Program-made: the position numbers and the translations under genes
The notes under the pieces: model-generated
The model's database searches: none
Seen by the model: only the letters and a program-made list of their open reading frames with translations
Told to the model about the DNA's origin: nothing
In this document: piece by piece, positions 2,552 through 37,774 of the stretch
Position numbering within the stretch: position 1 is the first letter of the stretch
Layout: every line of letters begins with the position of its first letter
IMG/VR virus record: IMGVR_UViG_3300045988_054897
Direction: 5' to 3' (one strand)
DNA from: a virus
Length of the DNA stretch: 39,591 nt

Positions 2552-2818
2552 CTATTCAAAGACTTCCGATGCGATTTTGCGGTACGCCTTTCGGCGATAC
2601 TTTTTGACCGTATCCGGCGACAGATTCATTTCAAATGCCACCTGTACGCAGGAGCGGCCCCGCACGTCGCACTCGACGAGGCACGCCATTTCGTCGGGTG
2701 GAAGCTCAAAAGACCGAATGTATGCCACGGCCCGCCGCGGGGCCATAGAGGATAATTTTGCCCGGATCGCTCGGTGCTGCTTGTCCATGCTGTGCGCCGG
2801 GGCTTGCAGAGCGCTCAC
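2552..2818 (-). CDS. Sigma-70 region-4-like HTH regulator (possible late-gene activator)
   Basis: LPPDEMACLVECDVRGRSCVQVAFEMNLSPDTVKKYRRKAYRKIA resembles sigma70_r4. Start uncertain (GTG 2818 or ATG 2788). The palindrome GGGAGGCATGCCTCCC lies just upstream. Confidence 0.6.
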   Translation of the reverse strand: MSALQAPAHSMDKQHRAIRAKLSSMAPRRAVAYIRSFELPPDEMACLVECDVRGRSCVQVAFEMNLSPDTVKKYRRKAYRKIASEVFE

Positions 2819-2855: not shown

Positions 2856-3518
2856 TTAATTTAGAATTTTTCCGAGGTATGCGTAAACATATTCTCCCCA
2901 TGCCTTCTGCGTCGCGGAGCCGAATGAACCGTCCACGTCCAGCTCGTACCCGCAGACATTGAGAAATTCCTGCAATTTCTTGACTTCCGCGCCCTTGTCG
3001 CCGCGTGTGAGCACGGTCTTGTCCGCGGGGTATTTCGGCACGCCGAAGCCACGAATATACCGCCCGTTGATTTCCAACGTCCGATAGCCGCACTCGTGAG
3101 CTTTACCCTTGTTGCCCTCGAACACCGTGAAGCTCTGATCGTCACAGGCGGTCACGATGCCCGTGTGGTTGGGCGCGCCCGTGCAGTCCGTGAGGGCGTA
3201 GTCCTTGCGGTCGTTCCAATGGTAGAAGACCTGTTCGCCGATTTTGGGAACGTGTGCGTCGTCCTCGACCCATTGGCCGCGCGCCTGATACCACCGCATC
3301 TGCTCGCCGCAGCTGCACTCGATGGGGAGCACCTCTGTCAGGCCGCAGAGGATCGCCGCCGCGGACACCATCGCCGCGCAGTAGTCGTCCGAATAGGCGA
3401 GCTTGTAGCCGCGCGGGTGCGGGAGGTAGCTGTTGTAGGCGTCCACGATGCTTTTATGCACCGCATCGCCGCGTACAGCGCCGACCCAGCCCGTCATGGT
3501 CTCAAGAAATTTCTTCAT
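2856..3518 (-). CDS. Endolysin: CHAP/NlpC-P60-type amidase-peptidase domain plus C-terminal PG_binding_1 domain
   Basis: DDYCAAMVS (Cys) and APNHTGIV (His) motifs; C-terminus GDKGAEVKKLQEFLNVCGYELDVDGSFGSATQKAW. Confidence 0.8.
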   Translation of the reverse strand: MKKFLETMTGWVGAVRGDAVHKSIVDAYNSYLPHPRGYKLAYSDDYCAAMVSAAAILCGLTEVLPIECSCGEQMRWYQARGQWVEDDAHVPKIGEQVFYHWNDRKDYALTDCTGAPNHTGIVTACDDQSFTVFEGNKGKAHECGYRTLEINGRYIRGFGVPKYPADKTVLTRGDKGAEVKKLQEFLNVCGYELDVDGSFGSATQKAWGEYVYAYLGKILN

Positions 3519-3690
3519 TTTTGCGTTTCTCGGTCTGCGTGCCGAAGTAGAAGGCGATGATGGTCGTGAAGATCGTCAAAAACTCCGTCCCGCTGATGCT
3601 GCCGCGCAGGGCAAGCACCGAGAAAACCGCCGTGAGCGCGATGGTCACGATGCTCTTGACCGTAAGCAGATTGGCAATTCGATTTTGCAT
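3502..3690 (-). CDS. Holin (62 aa, 2 TM, charged C-terminus)
   Basis: Two hydrophobic stretches then TQTEKRKNEEIS; overlaps the endolysin start. Confidence 0.75.
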   Translation of the reverse strand: MQNRIANLLTVKSIVTIALTAVFSVLALRGSISGTEFLTIFTTIIAFYFGTQTEKRKNEEIS

Positions 3691-4410: not shown

Positions 4411-4712
4411 GAGACCACCTCCCACTCGTCGATCTCCGACTTGATGCGGTCGATAAAACTGTTCCCACCGAGGGCCTTGTAGCCCCGATAGAGATAGAGA
4501 AAATCCTCCAGCTCGTACTGCCGGATGGTGCGGCCCTCCCTGTGGCGGTAGTAGGTGTGCAGCATGTCGTGCCGGAGCTGGCATTTAAGCGCGTCGGTCA
4601 GCTTGTCCAGCCCGAGCAGCTTGCTGCGCAGCGGTTTGACAAGCATGGCGACCGCCGCGAGGATGACCGTCAGCTCCGAGCACAGCGCCGCCAATTTCGA
4701 TAAACTTTCCAT
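4407..4712 (-). CDS. Hypothetical membrane-anchored protein (N-terminal TM) in the lysis cassette
   Basis: ORF track; LAALCSELTVILAAVAMLV hydrophobic segment. Confidence 0.6.
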   Translation of the reverse strand: MESLSKLAALCSELTVILAAVAMLVKPLRSKLLGLDKLTDALKCQLRHDMLHTYYRHREGRTIRQYELEDFLYLYRGYKALGGNSFIDRIKSEIDEWEVVS

Positions 4713-4740
4713 AGGCGTTGTCTCTCTTTCCGGCGGCGCA

Positions 4741-4777
4741 AAAAAAGCCGCCTTGTCGTGCTTGACAAAGCGGCTTT
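4741..4777 (-). terminator. Intrinsic terminator of the small toxin transcript
   Basis: Minus strand: AAAGCCGCTTTGTC-AAGCAC-GACAAGGCGGCTTT then TTTTTT. Confidence 0.65.
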
Positions 4778-4791
4778 AGGTGTGCTATATT
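4762..4791 (+). promoter_or_regulatory. Near-consensus promoter for a plus-strand antisense RNA
   Basis: TTGACA (4762-4767), 18-nt spacer, TGcTATATT (4783-4791). Confidence 0.5.
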
Positions 4792-4797
4792 TAGGCC

Positions 4798-4895
4798 AGT
4801 AAGAACGGCTGCCATTGCTGGTGGCGGTCGTCCCTCAGTGAGTTTATAGCTCGAAGGAAACGCCGCTTACCGCTATGGTGGGCGGTTATTTCTTA
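4798..4895 (+). ncRNA. Candidate ~100-nt antisense sRNA (type I antitoxin-like), convergent with the toxin mRNA 3' end
   Basis: Predicted start about 7 nt after the -10. Terminator-like hairpin CCGC-tta-CCGC-TATG-GTGG-GCGG (4863-4885) then TTATTTCTT; overlaps the toxin stop codon and 3' UTR. Confidence 0.4.
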
Positions 4896-4975
4896 TGTCT
4901 TGTGACCGTGAAGATCAGAGACGCAAGACCGATGAGCACAAGCGAATATGTAAACATATCAGCGTATGTAACCAT
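4886..4975 (-). CDS. 29-aa hydrophobic peptide resembling the 'putative holin-like toxin' (Hol-Tox) family; too short for the ORF track
   Basis: AAAGGAGGTG RBS 5 nt before ATG 4975; MVTYADMFTYSLVLIGLASLIFTVTRHKK*. Confidence 0.6.
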   Translation of the reverse strand: MVTYADMFTYSLVLIGLASLIFTVTRHKK

Positions 4976-5029
4976 CGCGCACCTCCTTTGCAGGAAGTGG
5001 ACAACCTCGCCGTTCTTACCGGCAGGCGA

Positions 5030-5059
5030 ATTATAGCACAGTCTGCCGCGCTTTGTCAA
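5030..5059 (-). promoter_or_regulatory. Consensus sigma-A promoter of the toxin peptide gene
   Basis: Minus strand: TTGACA (5059..5054), 18-nt spacer, TGcTATAAT (TATAAT = 5035..5030). Confidence 0.6.
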
Positions 5060-5062
5060 TTT

Positions 5063-5086
5063 GCCGCCCTCCGGGGCGGCTTTTTT
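5063..5086 (+). terminator. Hairpin plus T-run (plus-strand sense), directly after the stop of the minus-strand gene 5085..5345
   Basis: GCCGCCC-TCCG-GGGCGGC then TTTTTT. Confidence 0.5.
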
Positions 5087-5345
5087 ACTTGTTCAGCTCC
5101 GCGAGCTTTTCCGCGATGTCCTCGGGGATGGCGCAGGTCGTCATCTTGACGCAGTAGCCGTCCTCGTCGTAGGTGAGCTTGTAGCAGGGGGCGACATATA
5201 CCTCCGTGCCGGCGCGGGAGAGGTCGCGCGCCATGACGGGCTGCACGATGCTGTTCTTGACGCCCGAGTTTTCGCTCAGGCCCGCGGGGGTGTCGGTGAC
5301 CTCGATGGGCTTGCCGTCGGATGCGATACGAGTTGCAGTAGCCAT
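5085..5345 (-). CDS. Hypothetical protein (86 aa)
   Basis: Start moved to ATG 5345 (MATATRIASDG) after AAGGAGAA. Confidence 0.55.
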   Translation of the reverse strand: MATATRIASDGKPIEVTDTPAGLSENSGVKNSIVQPVMARDLSRAGTEVYVAPCYKLTYDEDGYCVKMTTCAIPEDIAEKLAELNK

Positions 5346-6594: not shown

Positions 6595-8835
6595 TTATAC
6601 GATGAGCCTGCGCCCAAGACGGTCGAGCAGCGGCTTTTGTGTGTTGTCGCGCAGCCAGCCTGTGCTGAGCGGCTTGAGCTTGCGATAGTAGATGATGATG
6701 CAGCCGTCGCCTGCCTCGCCGCCGTCGGAGCCACGACCGCCGGGAGCTGCCGTACCATCTTGCGCATACAAGCTTGCCGTTTGAAACGAGCCACTTCTTG
6801 ATGTCGTCTGATGGCTGTCTGCGTAGCCATACCCGCCAGCACCGCCGCCGCCGTTGCCGCCCCGGCCACCATAGCCGCAGCGGGCCTCTTTTGGCGGAGC
6901 GGATGCGTTTGCGCCCGCGCCGCCGCTCGCGGAAATGACAGACGCACTCGAGCTGGATACGCGGCCGCTGCCTCGTGCCGTGGCCGCGCCGCCGTTTGAG
7001 CCAACGGCTGCACCGCCGCCATAGCCTCCGTGCCACTCATAACCGACATAGCCATAATCGCCAGAAGTCCAGTTACCTCTACCGTCTTCCCCGCTTTCCG
7101 TACTATCTGCGCCTGCCTTATACGTTACACCATCTACGGTGATCGCGGGGCTGGGGATCTCTACATACTGGTTATTCTCGATCTTGTAACCGTGGCCGCG
7201 CGAACCGGCAATACCTGCATCACCCGGCATGGCGTAGGTGTCTCCGGTCACCGGGTCGGTGTAGCCGTTTAGGCTGACCGAGCCGCTGTCGCTGGATGAG
7301 CCCCCCATCGTGGTCGCGGTGCCGTGACTGCCATCTTCCGTGCTGTCGGAAAGCGCACCTACGCCGCCCACGCCGCACGCATACGGGACCTTTGCGCCCG
7401 GAACGGCGTTTATCACCGTTTCGACCAGTACCTTGCCGCCCGCGCCCGGATCTCCGGCGTCGCCTCCGGGAACACCTTCTCCGCGCGGGACATAGACATA
7501 GCGGCGTCGGCTGTCGGTAGTCCCATCATCTGTTTCCGTCCAGGATGCGCGAGCTTCAGCGGAGCTGCCGTTGGCGCCGCATTTTCCGCCCTGCCCGCCG
7601 CCGATGAGCACTTTGGTGTAGGTGGTCACGCCTTCCGGCACGGTCCAAGTGCCGGAGCCAGTGAGCAGCACGCGCTCGTCAAAATACTCCGATAATTCCG
7701 GCTGCGGGGGAAGAAAGCCGACGAGCGCCGCCATCTCGCTCTTGAGGGTGCCGCTCATGGTCGTGTCAAGGCTCACGATGCACGCAGAGACCATCTGCTT
7801 ATCGTAGGGGTGATAGACGCTGACCACATGTCCGGGCTTCTCTTGCCCGCTTACAATGCCGTTGGTGATGGTCTCTCGGCACTTATAATAGTCTGCTAGC
7901 CTTTTGGCGACAGCGGAGGAATTGACAAGGGAGACGAGCGTGGCGTCCGTAACGGACTTGACGTTTTCCGCCGCGTTCTCTGTGACGGTTTGCGTCACAA
8001 GACGCGTGTTGTGGATGTACGTCTTGCCCTTGAGCAAGCCGGAGCCGGAGGAGATTTTGGCGTAGTTCGCGCCGCTATCCAAAATAGTGAAGCCTGTCGC
8101 TGTAAGTGAGTGCATCGGCTCGGAGAAGGTGATGATATCTCCTTGCTGAGATGTGCCGGAAAACAGCTCCTTTTCGTCGGTTCCCGCGATGTACTGATGC
8201 TCCGTAACGGTAACGGCGGAGACGGGGTCGCTATAGCTCACTTTGCCGCCGCTGGCATACATTCGGTTGCTGCCAATCGTGGACGAGGCACCATCCCATA
8301 GCGCATCAATGTGCAAAACGCCGTTTAAATCGGTCGTCAAATACGCGCCGATAGCAAACAGCACCTGCACAAGGTTGTCTCTTGCGCTTTTCCCCCGCCT
8401 ATCTGCTTTTGGCTGGCAATACGGCAGCCATCCATATAGCTTGGTGTTGGCAAATACGCTTTTTACAACAACAGGTACGTTCCCGCAGATTTCTTTAACG
8501 ACCTCTGCCACAGTTTGCCCGGTATAGATGCCGCCTTTGTGCGCCATTGCCGCCAAAAGCCCGACCGCAGACCACGCAACGAGCCGATACGAGGTTGCGC
8601 CGGTGCGTGTAATTGACCGGAGATAATAAGTCTGCATGGATGCGTCGGAATCATTTTCCCAAACGCGGATCGGGTCGTTCTTGGCAAAAGCCATAATGGT
8701 CGGATCATTGCATCGGACGACCGCAGTTAGCGTATCCGCCGAAATGCTTTCGCAGCTTAACGATTGTTCGCGCGTCGGCTTGGCACTTTCGGTTTGCGAA
8801 AAAAGAAATGTCCAGTTTTTATAGGTGATCTTCAT
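6595..8835 (-). CDS. Tail-tip / host-specificity-like structural protein with Gly-rich C-terminal domain (746 aa)
   Basis: Start moved to ATG 8835 (MKITYKNW), 2 nt after the upstream stop. TWTVPEGVTTYTKVLIGGGQGGKCGANG... is the glycine-rich domain typical of minor tail proteins. Confidence 0.75.
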   Translation of the reverse strand: MKITYKNWTFLFSQTESAKPTREQSLSCESISADTLTAVVRCNDPTIMAFAKNDPIRVWENDSDASMQTYYLRSITRTGATSYRLVAWSAVGLLAAMAHKGGIYTGQTVAEVVKEICGNVPVVVKSVFANTKLYGWLPYCQPKADRRGKSARDNLVQVLFAIGAYLTTDLNGVLHIDALWDGASSTIGSNRMYASGGKVSYSDPVSAVTVTEHQYIAGTDEKELFSGTSQQGDIITFSEPMHSLTATGFTILDSGANYAKISSGSGLLKGKTYIHNTRLVTQTVTENAAENVKSVTDATLVSLVNSSAVAKRLADYYKCRETITNGIVSGQEKPGHVVSVYHPYDKQMVSACIVSLDTTMSGTLKSEMAALVGFLPPQPELSEYFDERVLLTGSGTWTVPEGVTTYTKVLIGGGQGGKCGANGSSAEARASWTETDDGTTDSRRRYVYVPRGEGVPGGDAGDPGAGGKVLVETVINAVPGAKVPYACGVGGVGALSDSTEDGSHGTATTMGGSSSDSGSVSLNGYTDPVTGDTYAMPGDAGIAGSRGHGYKIENNQYVEIPSPAITVDGVTYKAGADSTESGEDGRGNWTSGDYGYVGYEWHGGYGGGAAVGSNGGAATARGSGRVSSSSASVISASGGAGANASAPPKEARCGYGGRGGNGGGGAGGYGYADSHQTTSRSGSFQTASLYAQDGTAAPGGRGSDGGEAGDGCIIIYYRKLKPLSTGWLRDNTQKPLLDRLGRRLIV

Positions 8836-8837
8836 GC

Positions 8838-9209
8838 TCACTTCTCCGTCAACACGAGCACCGTACCCGTCCAGTATTCCGCCGCGTTTGTCCCCTGCCC
8901 CCGATCTACGCTTTCGGGCGGTTCGCAAGTCATTGCAGCCGTGCGGTAATCTCCCGTTTTAGGATCAAAAAAGTAGACGTTAAGCGTCCCGCTATAAAGC
9001 TGGGCCAGCAACGCATTTAGCTGCGTTTCGGTCAGCGGCATACAGGTGCAGGTGATGACTGCTTTAATTGCCAAAATGTCTTCGGTGAAACTCCCATCGA
9101 GCATATAGCCCTCGTTCGGCCCCTTGATCTTTTTGTGCGTAACCTTATAGCCAACCGGAGTAAAGTACGCAGTGAAGTCAACGTTATTGATCTTGATCGT
9201 TTTTCTCAT
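8838..9209 (-). CDS. Small tail component after the tape measure (Dit / gpM-like position)
   Basis: ORF track; overlaps the TMP stop; synteny. Confidence 0.6.
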   Translation of the reverse strand: MRKTIKINNVDFTAYFTPVGYKVTHKKIKGPNEGYMLDGSFTEDILAIKAVITCTCMPLTETQLNALLAQLYSGTLNVYFFDPKTGDYRTAAMTCEPPESVDRGQGTNAAEYWTGTVLVLTEK

Positions 9210-10496: not shown

Positions 10497-11366
10497 CATT
10501 TCGTTACCCCCGGTTTCCCGGTATTATAAAAAGCCACGCGCGTTTCCGCACATGGCTTTTAAGGGATTAGACTATATCTTCAACTTTTTCAAAAATCCAG
10601 CCCTTTTTATTTCTCTTGCGGTATCGACTGTTGTACTTAATTTCGCTGTCAGAACAGTGGAAGTATTCAGCCGCCGCTTGTCTGGATTCAAATAGGATCG
10701 TTTTGCCGTCGAGATGTGTGGCCCTTACAGGGCGCTTCTTATTTTTAATTCTGGAATGATACCCATACGACAGTGCGTTTTCAGAGGGCGTCACCCATCT
10801 CAAATTAGAAACGTCATTGTTTGAGCGGTTCCCGTCTATGTGGTCAACCCAGCACCTTTCTTTGTTCTCTGGTTTTTCAAGAAAAGCATCAGCAACAAGT
10901 CGGTGTACATGCTTAGATATTGTAATCCTGCAATATCCAGCATTTTTGCTAAGCACCATTATTTGCCCGGTGCTATCTTTCTTAACTCTGCCCTTATTGC
11001 TGACTGAGTATCCCGGTAAATCGGGAATCTGTTTCCAAATCTCCACGGCTTTTAATCCTTTCAGAAAAAGTTGGTGCGCACTTCCAACGTCGTACCAATA
11101 GGCGTTGTACTCGGTGACGAACCGATAGTCGTTTGACCTTCTATGCTTTGTATTATATCATAATTTCACATGCTTTGCAAGTGTAATTTTGATATAGCAT
11201 AGCTTGGCACAGGATAACCATGCTGTAAAAGCCATAAACAGTTTAGGTTTCCCCTGTTAGCACAACTGTCTCATGCGGCCATTTCCTGCCGCCTTTTCAG
11301 CTGCACACCCGTGGTAGGTTCACGCACGCTCACTGCATAATCACTTATGCAGCGGACATTAGATTT
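10497..11366 (-). mobile_element. Group I intron (870 nt) carrying an HNH homing endonuclease, inserted in the tape measure gene
   Basis: 5' exon ends in U (..ACGAU|), intron ends in G (..GAAAUG|). J8/7-like AAGAUAUAGUC at 10580..10570. UAAUCC (10569..10564) can pair with GGAUUA (11058..11053) as P7. Two GAAA-tetraloop hairpins lie at 10510..10555. Confidence 0.75.
10567..11046 (-). CDS. HNH homing endonuclease (intron-encoded)
   Basis: GTG start; PGYSVSNKGRV (NUMOD4-like), VDHIDGNRSNNDVSNLRWVTPSEN (HNH); AT-rich. Confidence 0.85.
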   Translation of the reverse strand: MEIWKQIPDLPGYSVSNKGRVKKDSTGQIMVLSKNAGYCRITISKHVHRLVADAFLEKPENKERCWVDHIDGNRSNNDVSNLRWVTPSENALSYGYHSRIKNKKRPVRATHLDGKTILFESRQAAAEYFHCSDSEIKYNSRYRKRNKKGWIFEKVEDIV

Positions 11367-16994: not shown

Positions 16995-17505
16995 TTTTCA
17001 GCTCGCTTTCCAGAATGTCCCGATACTGCCCCGCATGGTCGGCGGCAGCGGGCTTCAGAAACGGCTGTGCCTTGTTGCCGCGCGTGTAATGCCAGTTGCC
17101 CTTTGCATCTTGGTACACCCACGGTGTAGGCCGCCCGCCGCCGCCTTCGGCATAAATGCCCGTACCAAGCTCAACGTAAGGCGCATACTCAACATTTGTC
17201 CCAATATATACCGCAGGTTCATCTTCGTCCACAACATGAGTAATGCTATTCCTAAGATTGCCCGTATCTGGTATTTGCAGCTTTTTCGCATATCCCTCTG
17301 CCACCAGCCCGCACTTTTCAAGCCCGCGCAGAAGCGCCGCATGGATGGCGCCAGAAACCTCTTTGCTGTTGTCGGTGATTTCAACGTTCATCACAAAATC
17401 CCTCTTGACTTTTTTTCGGGAATTGAATATACTGACAGTGAGGAAACTCATGTTTCCGTTTTTCGAGCCGAACCTCTTCCCGTTACTGGAGGGGGGGCGG
17501 CTCAT
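16987..17505 (-). CDS. HK97 gp10-family head-tail/tail component
   Basis: IPDTGNLRNSITH...VEYAPYVELGTG matches the gp10-family pattern. ATG 17505 overlaps the MuF stop (ATGA); alternative start ATG 17391 (MNVEITDN). Confidence 0.7.
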   Translation of the reverse strand: MSRPPSSNGKRFGSKNGNMSFLTVSIFNSRKKVKRDFVMNVEITDNSKEVSGAIHAALLRGLEKCGLVAEGYAKKLQIPDTGNLRNSITHVVDEDEPAVYIGTNVEYAPYVELGTGIYAEGGGGRPTPWVYQDAKGNWHYTRGNKAQPFLKPAAADHAGQYRDILESELKNG

Positions 17506-18947
17506 TTTTTATACCTTCGTGCAAATAGGAGAGAACCGTTCTCTTCCAATGCAATCACATCAAACCCGAACCCAGTGCTAACCACGCTTCGAACTGCTCT
17601 ATCATCTACAACGCGTATAAGCTCATCGGTATCGATGGATCCTGTGCACTGTAACACAACCCCTCCAGGAGTTTTTGCAATTTGCTTTGTGGCTTTTCGA
17701 ATCGCCATATCTGCCGCTTTCGCTGTTGATATACTTTTCAATTCCCACTGTTTACCGCGCCACAGGTAGTCCGGTGTTTTTATCCCCTGCGCATTCGCTT
17801 CTTTCAACAGCACGATCTTTCCGCCAAACTGATTGCGCAGTTGATTCGCAGCTTCAATTTCAGTTTCATGGCCTTTTGCACGATAGCCGTTTTCGTATCG
17901 TACCTTACCCATGCGCGGCTTGGCGGAATCTATGTATTTCTTCGTAACATCCTTTGCAGATTTTTCGTTCCCCATGTGATATGGGGATAACTGTCTGCCG
18001 CTGTATCCCTGCTTCGATGCTTCCCACTGCGCATATGTCATGTCAGATATAAGCCCGTCATCCACCGCCACAATCAGCGTACAACGGCAGTTATATATCT
18101 CCCACGGTGGCCCTTGTGGGTCGCCGGGAAAGCGGCAGCCGTTGGAAAATTTCTTGTCCTGCGCCACTTGTTCGCCGTCAAGCATGGCATGAGAGTGGCG
18201 TGTACGCGCATCCAGCGTGGCCAACCAACATTTTTTGAGCTTTATCCCCATCTTCTCCGCCGCCGCGTAGCTTTCCATGCGTCCGGCGTTCTGCGCGCCG
18301 GTCACGGCGGTTCTGGCGGTGCGGATGGCGGAATTGCGGCTCATGGTGGTAATCCGCTTTTGCAGGTCGTCCGCCATATGCTTGATGCTCTTTCCCTGCA
18401 AGATAGAACTTGTCACGCTTGCCGTGATCTGCTTCTTACCATACGCGAGGTCGATACCGCGCTTTAAGGCGCGTTTCGGTGGGTAATATGGCATTAAGTC
18501 CGGCTGCTCTACCATAATCCGCTTGACCGTCTGCTCGTCCCACAGGTCAAAGCCGACGTTGCCCGCGACCTGCTCGATGGTGTACGCCGAATAGTTGCGG
18601 TTAAGGGAGTAGATACCGGGCGTTGCATCGTTTGTGTAGGCCACCGCCACAGCGTTTGCGTCGGTCACGCGGCGGGCCACCTTGTCACGCATGGCCTGAT
18701 AGCGTTCCCCGCGCCCGATCTGGTTGAGCCGCCATTGCTTATAATCGGCCTCCGTCCATTCCTTACCGTTCTGCACGGTGCCGATCAGCGCTTTCATTTC
18801 CTCGTCGCGCTTTTTAAATTGCTCAAAATATGCGTCGATGGTAGCTTGCAGTTCTTCCCCAGCTTCGCGGTATAGCTTTGCAATACGACGTTCCAGCTTT
18901 GCAAGCTCCTTGTCGGTCAGCTTGTGACCGAGGTCACTGTTCGCCAT
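17502..18947 (-). CDS. Phage Mu F / SPP1 gp7-like head morphogenesis protein fused to a C-terminal PD-(D/E)xK nuclease-like toxin domain
   Basis: MuF core ...LATLDARTRHSHAMLDGEQV...NCRCTLI. C-terminal ~150 aa has GHETEIEAANQL...IKTPDYLWRGKQWELKS (E..PD..ExK). Confidence 0.8.
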   Translation of the reverse strand: MANSDLGHKLTDKELAKLERRIAKLYREAGEELQATIDAYFEQFKKRDEEMKALIGTVQNGKEWTEADYKQWRLNQIGRGERYQAMRDKVARRVTDANAVAVAYTNDATPGIYSLNRNYSAYTIEQVAGNVGFDLWDEQTVKRIMVEQPDLMPYYPPKRALKRGIDLAYGKKQITASVTSSILQGKSIKHMADDLQKRITTMSRNSAIRTARTAVTGAQNAGRMESYAAAEKMGIKLKKCWLATLDARTRHSHAMLDGEQVAQDKKFSNGCRFPGDPQGPPWEIYNCRCTLIVAVDDGLISDMTYAQWEASKQGYSGRQLSPYHMGNEKSAKDVTKKYIDSAKPRMGKVRYENGYRAKGHETEIEAANQLRNQFGGKIVLLKEANAQGIKTPDYLWRGKQWELKSISTAKAADMAIRKATKQIAKTPGGVVLQCTGSIDTDELIRVVDDRAVRSVVSTGFGFDVIALEENGSLLFARRYKK

Positions 18948-25690: not shown

Positions 25691-25929
25691 CACATATCCC
25701 TCCATTTACACCCATCACAGGCGCCCCCGTGGGCCAGCGTGTAGTTTCCGCACTTTAGGCACAGTTCGTTCCGCAGGGCGTCAATTTCTTTCGCCTGCGC
25801 CTCGATCAAGTCAGCGGCTTCCGCCAGATCGTCGCACAGGGTAATGGGCGTTTCCCATTGATTCCCCTCCGCCCATTCTGCGTGCCCACGCAGCGCTTTT
25901 ACGAGTTTTTGATCTCTCATGTCCTTCAC
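25690..25929 (-). CDS. Hypothetical protein (79 aa)
   Basis: ORF track; overlaps the methyltransferase stop. Confidence 0.55.
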   Translation of the reverse strand: MKDMRDQKLVKALRGHAEWAEGNQWETPITLCDDLAEAADLIEAQAKEIDALRNELCLKCGNYTLAHGGACDGCKWRDM

Positions 25930-27178
25930 ACCCCTTTCATCCGTTCCTCAACCCTCCAATCATCGTTCCGCACCTGAAATGCGTCGCCAAGCTGGATGGT
26001 CTCGGGGAAATTGTGCTGCGTGGTCTGGATGGCGTATTTGTCGATCTCGGTCGCGTAGTATCTGAGCAACCACGGCTGTACGCCCAGCTTGCCCAGCGCG
26101 ATATGGCCGCAGCTCATACCGTCGTACATGGAAAGCACTTCCACCGGCTCCGTGGTCAGCCCCTCAAAGTGGCTCATGATATGCGCGATCACATCCACCG
26201 TCCAGCCGTTGCCCAGCATCTTATAGGCTTGGCTGTTGCTCACCGGGAAAACATACTCCTCCGGCACGGTCTGGAGGCGCTTGCACTCCGTCACGGTCAG
26301 CTTGCGGATGATGTAAAAGCCGTCTCGCAGTTTGATCGGGTATCGCTTGCCTTTAATGGCAATAAAGCCGTCGCGGACTTCGTATACGGGCCACGCTTTC
26401 CCATCCGGGCCGCCGACCGGCGTTGCATAAAGGCCCGTCTTGGCTCCCAGCCCCCCGCCGTTGCCGCAGAGGGTCACGCTCTTTCCGTCCGGCGAATAGA
26501 CGCGGTATTGCTGGCTGTCAAAGGCCGAGTTCTTCGCGTCATTCTCGATGGTGCCGACACGGACAGGCTCGGCTATGCAGTCGTATTGTTGCTTTGCCTG
26601 GTTCGGATTGTTTATCCTTGGCACAAGGTTGTTTTCGAGCTTTCCCATGTGCGCGTCAACGGTTCGCGCCTTTCCGTTTTTCATTCCATTGACGACGATC
26701 GGCTCTGCGACCATCGTGCGGCGGTGTTTCGTAAGCGTCTGTTGCGGATTGCTTCCCTTGGCTTCTGTAGCCGTGATGCAGTAAGATTTTTCCGACCATG
26801 CAACGCCGGTCTCCAGAATGTCCCGCAACAGAATACCCCTGTCCTCCGGTTGCTCGATCGGCACCTGGCTGTATGTACCGTCCGACTCGCGCTTGCCTAC
26901 CCAATATAAGCGCTGGCGGTTCTGCGCCGATACCAGCGCGGAGTTGATCAGCACGGGTTCAACGTCCAGCTCCGCCGTGATTTGCGTCCGGATAGCGGGC
27001 GACATGGATTTGTTGTTCTCGTAGAGGAAATAGTCCGGTTTGTATTTGTCGCGGGCAATGCGGTAATTCAAGAACAGCTCCCAGCCGATGCCGCTGGCCT
27101 CGGTCTCGCGGTTCTTGGTCTGCGCGATACTCCAGTGAGCTAAGTGCATGGAGACCCGCCGATAAGCAGTTTAACCAT
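25926..27178 (-). pseudogene. DNA (cytosine-5) methyltransferase with circularly permuted motif order (IV-X then I-III). Reading frame broken by a 5-nt insertion right after the catalytic PC motif
   Basis: GGAGGAGGTGG RBS, then ATG 27178 MVKLLIGGSPCT, TAG at 27142..27140, extra TAGCT (27142..27138), then HWSIAQTKNRETEASGIGWELF...FLYENNKSM...SAQNRQRLYW...TECKRLQTVPEEY...MLGNGWTVDV...VLSMYDGMSCG...YYATEIDKYA...GDAFQV*. Confidence 0.7.
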
Positions 27179-36083: not shown

Positions 36084-36476
36084 ATGAATATTCAAGAAGT
36101 GTGCAGAATCCGTAAAGAGGACTTAAAACTGACCTATCAAGACATTTCCGACGATTCCGGCGTACCGCTGTCCACCGTGCAGAATTTCTTTTCCAAGTTT
36201 TCGAAAGCTCCGTCGATCTACACCGTCGCGCCGATTTGCAAAGCGCTTGGAATATCGCTTGATGAAGCGTTCGGAATTTCCGAACACTTGACACCGACCG
36301 AGGAAACTTTGCAGGCGCGGAATGACGAGCTGGAACGCCATGTTGACGCGAAAGCGGATACCATTGAGATCATGCGGCGCGGCGTGCGTATCCGCAACGG
36401 CGTGATTGCTATAATGTTTGTCATTATCGTTCTGCTGTCTGCATGGTGCTTGTATATTGATTGGAGGGGGATTTGA
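36084..36476 (+). CDS. XRE HTH protein with C-terminal TM segment, coupled to the integrase
   Basis: KLTYQDISDDSGVPLSTVQNFFS; C-terminal VIAIMFVIIVLLSAWCLYI; stop overlaps the integrase ATG. Confidence 0.7.
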   Translation: MNIQEVCRIRKEDLKLTYQDISDDSGVPLSTVQNFFSKFSKAPSIYTVAPICKALGISLDEAFGISEHLTPTEETLQARNDELERHVDAKADTIEIMRRGVRIRNGVIAIMFVIIVLLSAWCLYIDWRGI

Positions 36477-37774
36477 TGAGAGCGGCGCTATATATCCGAG
36501 TGTCCAGCGAGGAACAGGCGCGGCATGGTCTATCATTACAAGAGCAGCGGGACACGCTGACAAGGTATGCCAATGCAAATAAAATGACCGTGGTGGGCAT
36601 ATATGAGGACGCGGGCATATCCGCGCGAAAGCCGTATAAAAAGCGACCTGCGCTCCTGCGGCTGCTGGATAATTGCAAAGCGGGGAAGGTAGACACGATT
36701 CTGTTTATCAAGCTCGACCGATGGTTTCGCAATGTCGCGGGATACTACGACGTGCAGACGCAGTTGGACAAATACGGCGTGACATGGCAGGCGACGGAAG
36801 AGGACTACGAAACGCGCACCGCGTCCGGGCGATTAAAGGTCAACATCATGCTTTCCGTCGCGCAGGACGAGGCCGACCGCACAAGCGAGCGGATCAAATT
36901 TATCAACAACGGCAAGCGTGCAAAAGGCCAACCGGCAGGGTCAAAAGCCCCTTTAGGGTATATCATCAAGGACAGGCAATACCAGATTGATAACGATACG
37001 GCAGATGCCGCGCGAGATATGTTTGCGGCGTATGTCAGACTGCAAAGCGTGTTGGGCGTAAAACGCTATATGCTTGAGACATGGGGCATTGACCGCGCGT
37101 ATACCAAGTATGTAAACTATTTTCGGAACCGGCTTTATATCGGCGAGGTGTACGGCATCGAGAATGCTTGCCCCGCCCTGGTGAGCAAGCAGGATTTTGA
37201 CATTGTAAATGATATCCTCCGTCAGCGGTCGCAGCGCTGCGCGGGAGTTGAGACAGATCGCGTTTATCTGTTCTCGGGGTTGCTGCATTGCAAAGAGTGT
37301 GGGAAAACGATGCAGTCGGAAACGGCAAAGCATATCTATACCTACTACCGATGCCGGACGCGAATGCTTGACAACTCCGCGTGCCAGCATAAAAAGAGGA
37401 TCCGCGAAGACGCGCTGGAAGATTACTTATTGCATGAGCTTGAAGGGATTGCCGAGCGAAACAATCGCTATTACAAAAAGGCAGAAAAAAAGCCCACGCA
37501 AAGCGCGGACGCGATACGCAAGAAAATGGGTAAGTTGAAAACGCTTTATCTTAACGACTTGATCGAGTTGGACGAATACAAGAAAGAGTACACCACATTA
37601 AAGAAATCCATTGAAGCGGTAGAGGAAAAGCCGAAGACAAACCTTGACGCGCTCCGAAATGGACTTGCTGAATATGACACTTATTCCCGGGAAGAGAAAA
37701 AGGAATTCTGGACGCGCTTTATCCGGAGAATTGACGCAGATGACGACGGCGCGTTTTTTGTAACGCCACGTTAG
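36476..37774 (+). CDS. Large serine recombinase (phage integrase)
   Basis: Start at ATG 36476 after GGAGGGGG; AALYIRVSSEEQ catalytic Ser motif, recombinase domain, zinc ribbon CKECGKTMQ...YYRC, C-terminal coiled coil. Confidence 0.9.
   Translation: MRAALYIRVSSEEQARHGLSLQEQRDTLTRYANANKMTVVGIYEDAGISARKPYKKRPALLRLLDNCKAGKVDTILFIKLDRWFRNVAGYYDVQTQLDKYGVTWQATEEDYETRTASGRLKVNIMLSVAQDEADRTSERIKFINNGKRAKGQPAGSKAPLGYIIKDRQYQIDNDTADAARDMFAAYVRLQSVLGVKRYMLETWGIDRAYTKYVNYFRNRLYIGEVYGIENACPALVSKQDFDIVNDILRQRSQRCAGVETDRVYLFSGLLHCKECGKTMQSETAKHIYTYYRCRTRMLDNSACQHKKRIREDALEDYLLHELEGIAERNNRYYKKAEKKPTQSADAIRKKMGKLKTLYLNDLIELDEYKKEYTTLKKSIEAVEEKPKTNLDALRNGLAEYDTYSREEKKEFWTRFIRRIDADDDGAFFVTPR

Follow-up and report, generated by a model that had tools for sequence, protein, structure and literature searches.

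We examined IMG/VR virus record IMGVR_UViG_3300045988_054897 (39,591 nucleotides (nt); this whole stretch is hereafter called the window) and found at positions 4740–5086 a small cassette that, judged from its sequence, is probably a self-contained type I toxin-antitoxin-like module of a temperate siphovirus-like phage of gut Oscillospiraceae. An earlier reading made from the letters of this DNA (the sequence-only reading) had proposed a module with a txpA/RatA-like overlap, in which the gene of a 29-amino-acid (aa) holin-like toxin peptide is faced by a convergent antisense RNA. The comparison of related copies supported this proposal, because the promoters are kept in every distinct cassette though their -10 hexamers differ, the open reading frame (ORF) of the peptide shows a synonymous excess, the helices of the antisense RNA covary and are strand-specific, and the cassette behaves as an autonomous insertion that also forms arrays.

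Both strands of positions 4600–5250 were read and the region was subjected to a consensus scan. Every element claimed on the minus strand was recovered, namely a promoter, a ribosome-binding site (RBS), the 29-aa ORF, a 3' untranslated region (3'UTR) of 108 nt, and a terminator (Table 1). When the 1.2-kb region was shuffled, 0.5 promoter-like sites were obtained even at the loose threshold of 9/12. The position of the transcription start site of the toxin mRNA was inferred with the promoter as the sole basis. The predicted mRNA gave a fold with a z of -7.6 against shuffles, and the encoded peptide has a single hydrophobic helix and a basic C-terminus. The 3'UTR is, from position 4795 upward, the full complement of the predicted antisense RNA and is the predicted target region. 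The toxin terminator was not listed by the consensus scan of the region, likely because its stem can extend into the T-run, leaving fewer than five T; it is nearly invariant across all cassette copies. A 57-aa ORF starting with TTG (4886..5059) was also considered as the gene and was rejected, since its apparent start is the -35 hexamer of the toxin promoter and the conserved geometry between the Shine-Dalgarno (SD) sequence and the ATG or GTG codon favours the 29-aa ORF.

The sequence-only reading had placed a second promoter, on the plus strand, within the toxin terminator. This promoter was indeed found, and its -35 hexamer (TTGACA, 4762-4767) is located inside the terminator. The hairpin with a U-run that had been described over the toxin stop codon was present as well. 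Furthermore, the promoter and the hairpin predict an RNA of about 100 nt that is complementary to the toxin 3'UTR, as had been anticipated, and that falls within the 3' part of the mRNA (4740-4895, minus strand); its predicted fold had a z of -3.7. By these coordinates the two genes appear to have the layout of the TxpA/RatA type, that is, convergent with the antisense RNA directed against the toxin 3'UTR. A further terminator, oriented along the plus strand, was found at 5063-5086, and would keep transcription started at the antisense promoter from running on into the tail genes. This hairpin, which had escaped the sequence-only reading, stands at the left edge of the phage copies, is absent together with the whole cassette from sister phages that lack the cassette, and is missing in some chromosomal copies.

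Table 1 Features of the cassette in the window, peptide types found in the same scaffold, and copies in a second phage backbone
Feature	Position	Strand	Sequence and remarks
Toxin promoter	5059..5030	-	TTGACA-18-TG-c-TATAAT; 12/12 hexamer matches plus TG extension, consensus scan; -35 TTGACA 5059..5054, -10 TATAAT 5035..5030; 18-nt spacer ends TGc
Predicted 5' end of toxin mRNA	5009..5023	-	GCCGGUAAGAACGGC; 5' arm of long-range helix
Anti-SD/SD hairpin	4980..4999	-	CACUUCCU-GCAA-AGGAGGUG; minimum free energy fold; RBS sequestered
Toxin RBS	4987..4980	-	AGGAGGTG; strong SD, ATG at 4975 starts 4-6 nt on
Toxin ORF	4975..4886	-	MVTYADMFTYSLVLIGLASLIFTVTRHKK; 29 aa plus stop; stop codon 4888..4886
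Toxin mRNA 3'UTR	4778..4885	-	108 nt; deduced from the positions of the ORF, both terminators, and the antisense promoter
3' arm of the 5'-3' helix	4795..4809	-	GCCGUUCUUACUGGC; opposite strand forms nt 1-15 of the predicted antisense RNA
Toxin mRNA terminator	4740..4777	-	stem 4744-4757/4764-4777, 11-14 bp, loop AAGCAC, then U7
Antisense (antitoxin) promoter	4762-4791	+	TTGACA-18-TG-c-TATATT; 11/12 plus TG, consensus scan
Predicted antisense RNA	4795..4895	+	about 100 nt; 5' stem 4805-4810/4826-4831, central hairpin, terminator; ends inferred
Antisense central hairpin	4839..4853	+	conserved UUUA-containing loop; alignment of 17 RNAs
Antisense terminator	4862..4894	+	hairpin of 10-11 bp (4862-4886), then TTATTTCTTAT; overlaps toxin stop codon
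Left-edge hairpin	5063..5086	+	GCCGCCCTCCGGGGCGGC, then T6; third terminator, 7 G-C pairs
T1 peptide			MVTY[AGS]D[ML]F...(R/K)HKK; 27-29 aa; ATG or GTG start; type of the window
T2 peptide			MSTAETIALLMLVIAAIKLGVDLKK
T3 peptide			MTTMEVLTLLLLLATVIFGILGYIKK; MTTMEVL... type
T4 peptide			MVTYAELIQIGILIVSICSLVYQICKRK; MVTYAELIQ... type, rarer
T5 peptide			MGDGRR...; single copy
Second-backbone copies	L166 6253-7562		also L164, L167, L170, L173

Relatives of the cassette were gathered through the neighbouring 101-aa gene and DNA patterns, and then by a profile search with nhmmer. At least about 270 copies were found, of which 159 distinct ones were analysed; the metagenome scan matched at least 120 stretches. 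The named sources were human-gut metagenomes and IMG/VR phage contigs of about 40 kb, and the genome matches comprised metagenome-assembled genomes (MAGs) labelled Oscillospiraceae, Butyricicoccaceae, and Clostridiales as well as the isolate Oscillibacter sp. MSJ-31. Among the matches of the genome scan, about half (e.g. Burkholderiales, Saccharibacteria, and Parvimonas) had arisen by chance, without a cassette, and were discarded. The antisense promoter was found in all 159 distinct cassettes as TTGACA with a TAnnnT -10 hexamer at 16-18 nt, and the toxin promoter, again in 159/159, as the -35 hexamer with TAnnnT at 17-18 nt; each promoter occurs with seven different -10 hexamers.

One DNA scaffold houses at least four dissimilar peptide types, which we numbered T1 to T5 (Table 1). 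The T1 peptide of the window recurs unchanged in 103 copies and as variants in others. Copies of one peptide type differ mostly at third codon positions. The variant states of T1 were 27 synonymous against 27 non-synonymous, where 25% synonymous was expected (p = 6.6e-5); those of T3 were 20 against 15 (p = 4.8e-5), and those of T2 were 8 against 10 (p = 0.05). The spacing between the SD and the start codon is conserved across at least four types, copies with a GTG start included. Conservation of the peptide ORF in relatives had been set as a test of the toxin proposal, and the recurrence of the ORF in related cassettes with a synonymous excess answers it positively. Together with its length of 29 aa, hydrophobic helix, basic tail, and SD, this excess suggests that the ORF is a genuine one, for a small, membrane-directed peptide of the type I toxin kind.

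Some individual copies deserve description. In the MAG of Clostridiales bacterium UBA4644, which holds at least six cassette copies, the cassettes stand in head-to-tail arrays of up to four (L182 6175-7510 and L181 6585-7450); each arrayed cassette has its own promoters and terminators and a different toxin, the order in L182 being T1, T1, T3, and T5. A disrupted toxin ORF within an intact RNA scaffold was observed at L198 ~10898-11222, L301 ~93-416, and L274 ~3016-3338, the disruptions among these copies being a 1-nt insertion, an in-frame stop, and small deletions. They could be natural inactivations of a harmful gene or assembly errors. In the cultured isolate Oscillibacter sp. MSJ-31 (NZ_JAHLPT010000002.1), a T3-type cassette is found at L194 5890-6215. 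Since the sequence downstream of it resembles the start of the 101-aa gene of the window, this cassette is probably in a related prophage.

The antisense RNA was then judged from an alignment of 17 RNAs. In its consensus structure 95.9% of the cells were paired, compared with at most 62% when the partners were slid, and the covariation score was 0.283 against a shuffle mean of 0.168, with none of 500 shuffles scoring as high. Four of the six pairs of the central hairpin are altered on both sides (e.g. AU:6, GC:5, CG:4) and the UUU of its loop is invariant; this loop is a plausible candidate for the first, kissing-loop contact, its partner being the mirror hairpin of the mRNA 3'UTR. Conserved G·U pairs that are formed only on the antisense strand occur in the 5' stem and in the terminator. 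Indeed, the hairpin over the stop codon has a mean energy of -16.0 kcal/mol on the antisense strand versus -9.2 on the sense strand and is stabler on the former in 156/156 copies, because the G·U pairs there turn into A·C mismatches on the sense strand. This bias indicates that the hairpin was selected as the terminator of an antisense RNA. A convergent promoter and terminator in 159/159 cassettes, strand-specific hairpins, and covariation all point to a genuine antisense overlap.

The U-tract of the antisense terminator, UUAUUUCUU, is the reverse complement of the Lys-Lys-stop codons of the toxin, AAGAAATAA, and AAGAAATAACCGCC is invariant among the aligned cassette variants. Opposite the U-tract, the last codons of the toxin are AAG AAA TAA in T1 to T3 and AAA CGA AAA TGA in T4. 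The U-tract therefore probably helps to fix the Lys-rich tail of the toxin.

Several features of the toxin mRNA had not been noticed by the sequence-only reading. One is a local hairpin that sequesters the RBS by pairing the SD with an anti-SD arm. It was judged by folding each sequence separately and not from an alignment of whole mRNAs, in which gap placement shifts the register between variants. All five bases of the SD were paired in this hairpin in 97 of the 159 copies and partly paired in 48 more (three or four bases in 47), and the two arms co-vary between variants (CUUCCU/AGGAGG, CCCCC/GGGGG, and CUUCCC/GGGAGG).

Another is a 15-bp helix between the extreme 5' end of the mRNA (5023..5009) and the 3'UTR (4809..4795), whose arms are 93% complementary and which closes the minimum free energy (MFE) fold. 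A helix of at least 11 bp appeared in the MFE folds of 156 of the 159 distinct mRNAs. In alignment A1 it was 85.8% paired, three out-of-register rows included, compared with at most 57% in slid controls; seven of the 15 pairs were altered on both sides (e.g. CG:12 and UA:6; AU:12 and GC:8), and the covariation score was equalled by none of 500 shuffles. The arms of T4 (GGCGCUGCC with GGCAGCGCC) and those of T5 (GGCGCUGUUGUA with UACAACAGCGCC) differ yet stay complementary. Furthermore, the two promoters with their leaders are an inverted duplication of each other, likewise overlooked before, so that the 5' end of the mRNA is nearly identical to that of the antisense RNA; the antisense-promoter part of the nhmmer model accordingly matched the toxin promoter on the opposite strand.

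The cassette behaves, as its flanks suggest, as a discrete and autonomous mobile insertion ("moron") in the late or lysis region. In sister phages without it, a 35-nt hairpin alone lies between a 95-aa gene and the 101-aa gene, and the window has, in place of that hairpin, a segment of about 350 bp bounded by the left hairpin and the toxin terminator. A second phage backbone, of 43-57 kb, has the cassette precisely at the junction of a Phage_holin_1 holin gene with an Amidase_3 endolysin gene; the flanks there are identical, but the toxin they enclose is T1-like in some copies and T2-like in others. In MAG chromosomes it adjoins genes for ABC transporters and citrate lyase ligase. The placement of the cassette in the lysis region of the window, two genes from the holin and endolysin, proved right: two ORFs intervene before a 62-aa putative holin with two helices (3502-3690, minus strand) and an endolysin with CHAP and PG_binding_1 domains (2856-3518, minus strand).

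The sequence-only reading had also assigned the peptide to the Hol_Tox family and suggested HMMER as a check. For the window peptide itself this did not hold, since it failed to reach the gathering score of Pfam PF16935 Hol_Tox (23.3 bits). For a sister peptide in the same scaffold, MVTYSDLFQFGLLIVGVIGLCFMYRKK of L266, it did hold, with 25.2 bits (E = 1.5e-5). Three further sister peptides scored 16.2, 12.7, and 12.1 bits, and a 25-aa sister type, MSTAETIALL..., had no Hol_Tox match at all. Over 22 aa the window peptide and that of L266 are 45% identical, and the two share a scaffold; the window peptide is thus a probable remote relative of Hol_Tox, as far as can be judged from sequence. Sister peptides gave weak, sub-threshold matches to NCBIfam models (e.g. 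ComI) and weak matches to PHROG "holin" families (E = 0.0016 and 0.14). No match of the window peptide to Fst/Ldr or to any other curated type I toxin model was found in Pfam-A and NCBIfam. Among GenBank phages and PLSDB plasmids, blastn found for the cassette either nothing or chance matches only (E = 8), and tblastn gave nothing beyond chance (E = 8) for the window peptide against GenBank phages or for the L266 sister against phages and PLSDB.

The cassette can be compared with several known systems. TxpA is 59 aa long; the window peptide is half that length and has no Pfam match. Similar to txpA/RatA of the skin element of Bacillus subtilis and to the TxpA family, the cassette would encode a small, N-terminally hydrophobic peptide starting with M-(S/V/T)-T-Y and, convergent with it, an antisense RNA to the toxin 3'UTR with a length of about 100 nt, and it lies in a prophage-like location. 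On the other hand, the host belongs to a high-GC gut lineage of Oscillospiraceae, the toxin terminator contains the antisense -35, the antisense terminator extends over the stop codon, and the 5' end of the mRNA, a duplicate of that of the antisense RNA, pairs with the 3'UTR. To our knowledge, no report describes such a duplicated and paired 5' end for txpA. With Hol_Tox (PF16935) of Firmicutes the window peptide shares its length class, single helix, Mx(T)Y-type start, and basic tail. As in txpA/RatA, RNase III is expected to cut the duplex (PMC6563280), and members of the TxpA family are annotated as "holin-like toxin". Fozo et al. (2010, PMC2887945) placed the "holin-like toxins" in the TxpA family; for the family member EF3263 of Enterococcus faecalis, a probe that overlapped the 3'UTR revealed an RNA of about 110 nt, and over-expression of the peptide was toxic.

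In hok/sok of plasmid R1 and aapA1/IsoA1 of Helicobacter pylori, the toxin mRNAs are locked by long-distance pairing of their 5' and 3' ends, the antisense RNA binds the 5' region, and processing of the 3' end activates the mRNA. The cassette mRNA is likewise predicted to be closed by 5'-3' pairing with the SD sequestered, and the helix covaries. It differs in that its antisense RNA would bind the 3'UTR, competing for the segment bound by the mRNA 5' end, and in that no processing site is known for it. Convergent type I pairs are documented in Clostridioides difficile prophages, and toxin-antisense duplexes are cleaved by RNase III (PMC6563280). The pairs of this species are reported to help maintain mobile elements and to stabilise prophages (PMC6563280; PMC7699646). 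The characterised toxins have 50-53 aa and their homologues 30-56 aa; they are hydrophobic and Lys-rich, and no other known type I toxin is homologous to them (PMC6563280). The cassette resembles the phiCD630-1/2 pairs (CD0977.1-RCd11 etc.) in its general features, that is, in the clostridial prophage, the convergent overlap, the hydrophobic N-terminus and lysine-rich C-terminus of the peptide, and the small ORF left unannotated, whereas the bacterial family is a different one.

Several observations weigh against a type I toxin-antitoxin module. Since the two leaders are copies and the 3' arm of the 5'-3' helix doubles as the antisense 5' end, an inverted repeat evolving in concert at the DNA level could account for part of the covariation of this helix. 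An excess of G·U over A·C is what would prove pairing of this helix at the RNA level, and the excess is modest (19 vs 5 in related rows, 12 vs 8 in distinct arm pairs). Most copies come from closely related phages, and thus the counts do not represent independent events. In addition, the window peptide has no match in Pfam (E <= 10), NCBIfam, or PHROGs; an Rfam search of the region gave at best 21.8 bits against a gathering score of 80, on an unrelated terminator; and the database proteins of this sequence are unnamed or "hypothetical" (10, found with a chimeric query of two types).

Among other explanations, we consider an accessory role in lysis unlikely, in which the peptide would act as a small holin, an antiholin, or a lysis-timing factor and be restrained by the antisense RNA until late infection, with no addiction or defence function. 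This idea draws on the position of the cassette in the lysis regions of two unrelated backbones, where it precedes the putative holin and endolysin by two genes in one and lies between Phage_holin_1 and Amidase_3 in the other, and on the matches of sister peptides to PHROG "holin" families and to the Pfam "holin-like toxin". However, many sister phages with the same lysis genes do without the cassette, which is consequently dispensable for lysis; a canonical holin already adjoins it in the second phage group; copies occur at non-phage chromosomal sites and in tandem arrays; and the cassette is shielded from the late operon by having sigma-70-type promoters of its own and a terminator at either side. 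The narrower candidate that the peptide is the holin of the phage was rejected on the same absence from sisters, on the separate 62-aa putative holin in the window and the Phage_holin_1 holin alongside other copies, and on the lack of a PHROG match.

Improbable to a similar degree is a small membrane protein harmless to its own host, acting in superinfection exclusion, receptor masking, or regulation, with the antisense RNA tuning its level. Morons of temperate phages often encode exclusion functions, and the peptide is short, hydrophobic, and without enzymatic features. In addition, Fozo et al. (PMC2887945) found one predicted type I toxin, YhzE-2, to be non-toxic even when tested in the host it comes from, and reported that TxpA harms B. 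subtilis without being toxic to Escherichia coli. Against this stands the layered repression of a 29-aa ORF through its SD, a closed fold, and an antisense promoter, which is a hallmark of harmful products. Some copies moreover have a frameshifted or stopped ORF in an intact RNA scaffold, and tandem copies with swapped peptides as well as the link to Hol_Tox and TxpA suit toxins better. Finally, the region could hold no functional gene, being an intergenic insulator of back-to-back terminators with fortuitous promoter-like sequence and an accidental ORF. A match in a consensus scan does not demonstrate function, an ORF of this size is barely within reach of gene callers, and its database entries are unnamed or "hypothetical". 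We nevertheless regard this as very improbable, since the ORF shows a synonymous excess and keeps its SD-start geometry across at least four peptide types, both promoters are retained in 159/159 with varied hexamers, the RNA helices covary, and a sister peptide lies above a curated Pfam threshold.

The best reading is therefore a type I module that is a new family member, ordinary in kind, in the style of TxpA/RatA, remotely tied to Hol_Tox, and with a mirrored architecture. We propose that the near-consensus minus-strand promoter would give an mRNA of about 284 nt for a 29-aa membrane peptide with a single helix. This mRNA is predicted to be translationally quiet, with its SD held in the local hairpin and the 15-bp helix joining its extreme 5' end to the 3'UTR. 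The equally strong convergent promoter would produce an RNA of about 100 nt that is the perfect complement of the 3'UTR and ends at the U-tract over the KK-stop codons. Pairing probably begins at the conserved hairpin loop and would extend to a duplex of about 100 bp, which would be cleaved by analogy with the action of RNase III on txpA/RatA, so that little peptide would be made while both genes are present. If the cassette were lost or transcription stopped, the antisense RNA, presumably the shorter-lived, would allow the peptide to form and damage the membrane. The outcome may be maintenance of the prophage or locus, or abortive defence.

A more specific version of the type I reading can be offered tentatively. 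The antitoxin and the mRNA, sharing their 5' sequence, may compete for one segment of the 3'UTR in a "self-mimicking" scaffold. The closed mRNA might then be a stable, silent reservoir that the antitoxin opens by strand displacement from the kissing hairpin, and the 5'-3' helix might set the kinetics of killing and rescue. The scaffold would also be a chassis for at least four swapped toxin ORFs, in which Lys-Lys-stop stays fixed because it doubles as the U-tract of the antitoxin terminator.

Type I pairs are nearly invisible to annotation and are essentially undescribed in gut Oscillospiraceae/Ruminococcaceae, which are dominant and mostly uncultured, and in their phages; our literature search for such systems in Oscillospiraceae found no paper. 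The present cassette is abundant, given the number of metagenome stretches that carry it, while its peptide is unnamed in the searched databases. The family is defined by sequence, and its natural variation is sufficient to read RNA structure. If it is true that the cassette stabilises prophages or aborts infections, this would bear on prophage persistence and on phage-host dynamics in the gut. Oscillibacter sp. MSJ-31, as a cultured carrier of the MTTMEVL...-type peptide, makes the cassette experimentally tractable. The KK-stop codons that double as a U-tract and the mirrored leaders are also examples of dense dual coding.

In essence, the window spans an entire temperate phage, with a terminase, an SPP1-type portal, a MuF-like protein, and tail genes upstream of the cassette. 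Its temperate nature was concluded from a large serine recombinase (Resolvase and Zn_ribbon_recom domains; 36461-37774, plus strand). Downstream of the cassette on the minus strand are the 101-aa gene (phrog_4105) and then an ORF with a weak NAGPA-like match. Directly downstream of the endolysin is a gene for an 88-aa protein with a helix-turn-helix of sigma-70 region 4 or LuxR type (2552-2818, minus strand), and this endolysin-adjacent site is unusual for a regulator. At 600-1196 on the plus strand, opposite to the surrounding genes and in a patch of lower GC (0.485), we observed a gene for an HNH homing endonuclease with NUMOD4 and NUMOD1 (phrog_59, E = 4e-43), which is probably a free-standing homing endonuclease insertion. 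The MuF-like head-morphogenesis protein (17502-18947, minus strand) has a weak CdiA_C match at aa 390-422 (E = 2e-4, below the gathering score) and may be a MuF-fused polymorphic toxin. At 25926-27149 on the minus strand there is a gene for a C-5 cytosine DNA methyltransferase. Finally, the 777-aa tail protein at 6595-8928, also on the minus strand, has a long, glycine-rich C-terminal half of low complexity with GGxG-type repeats.

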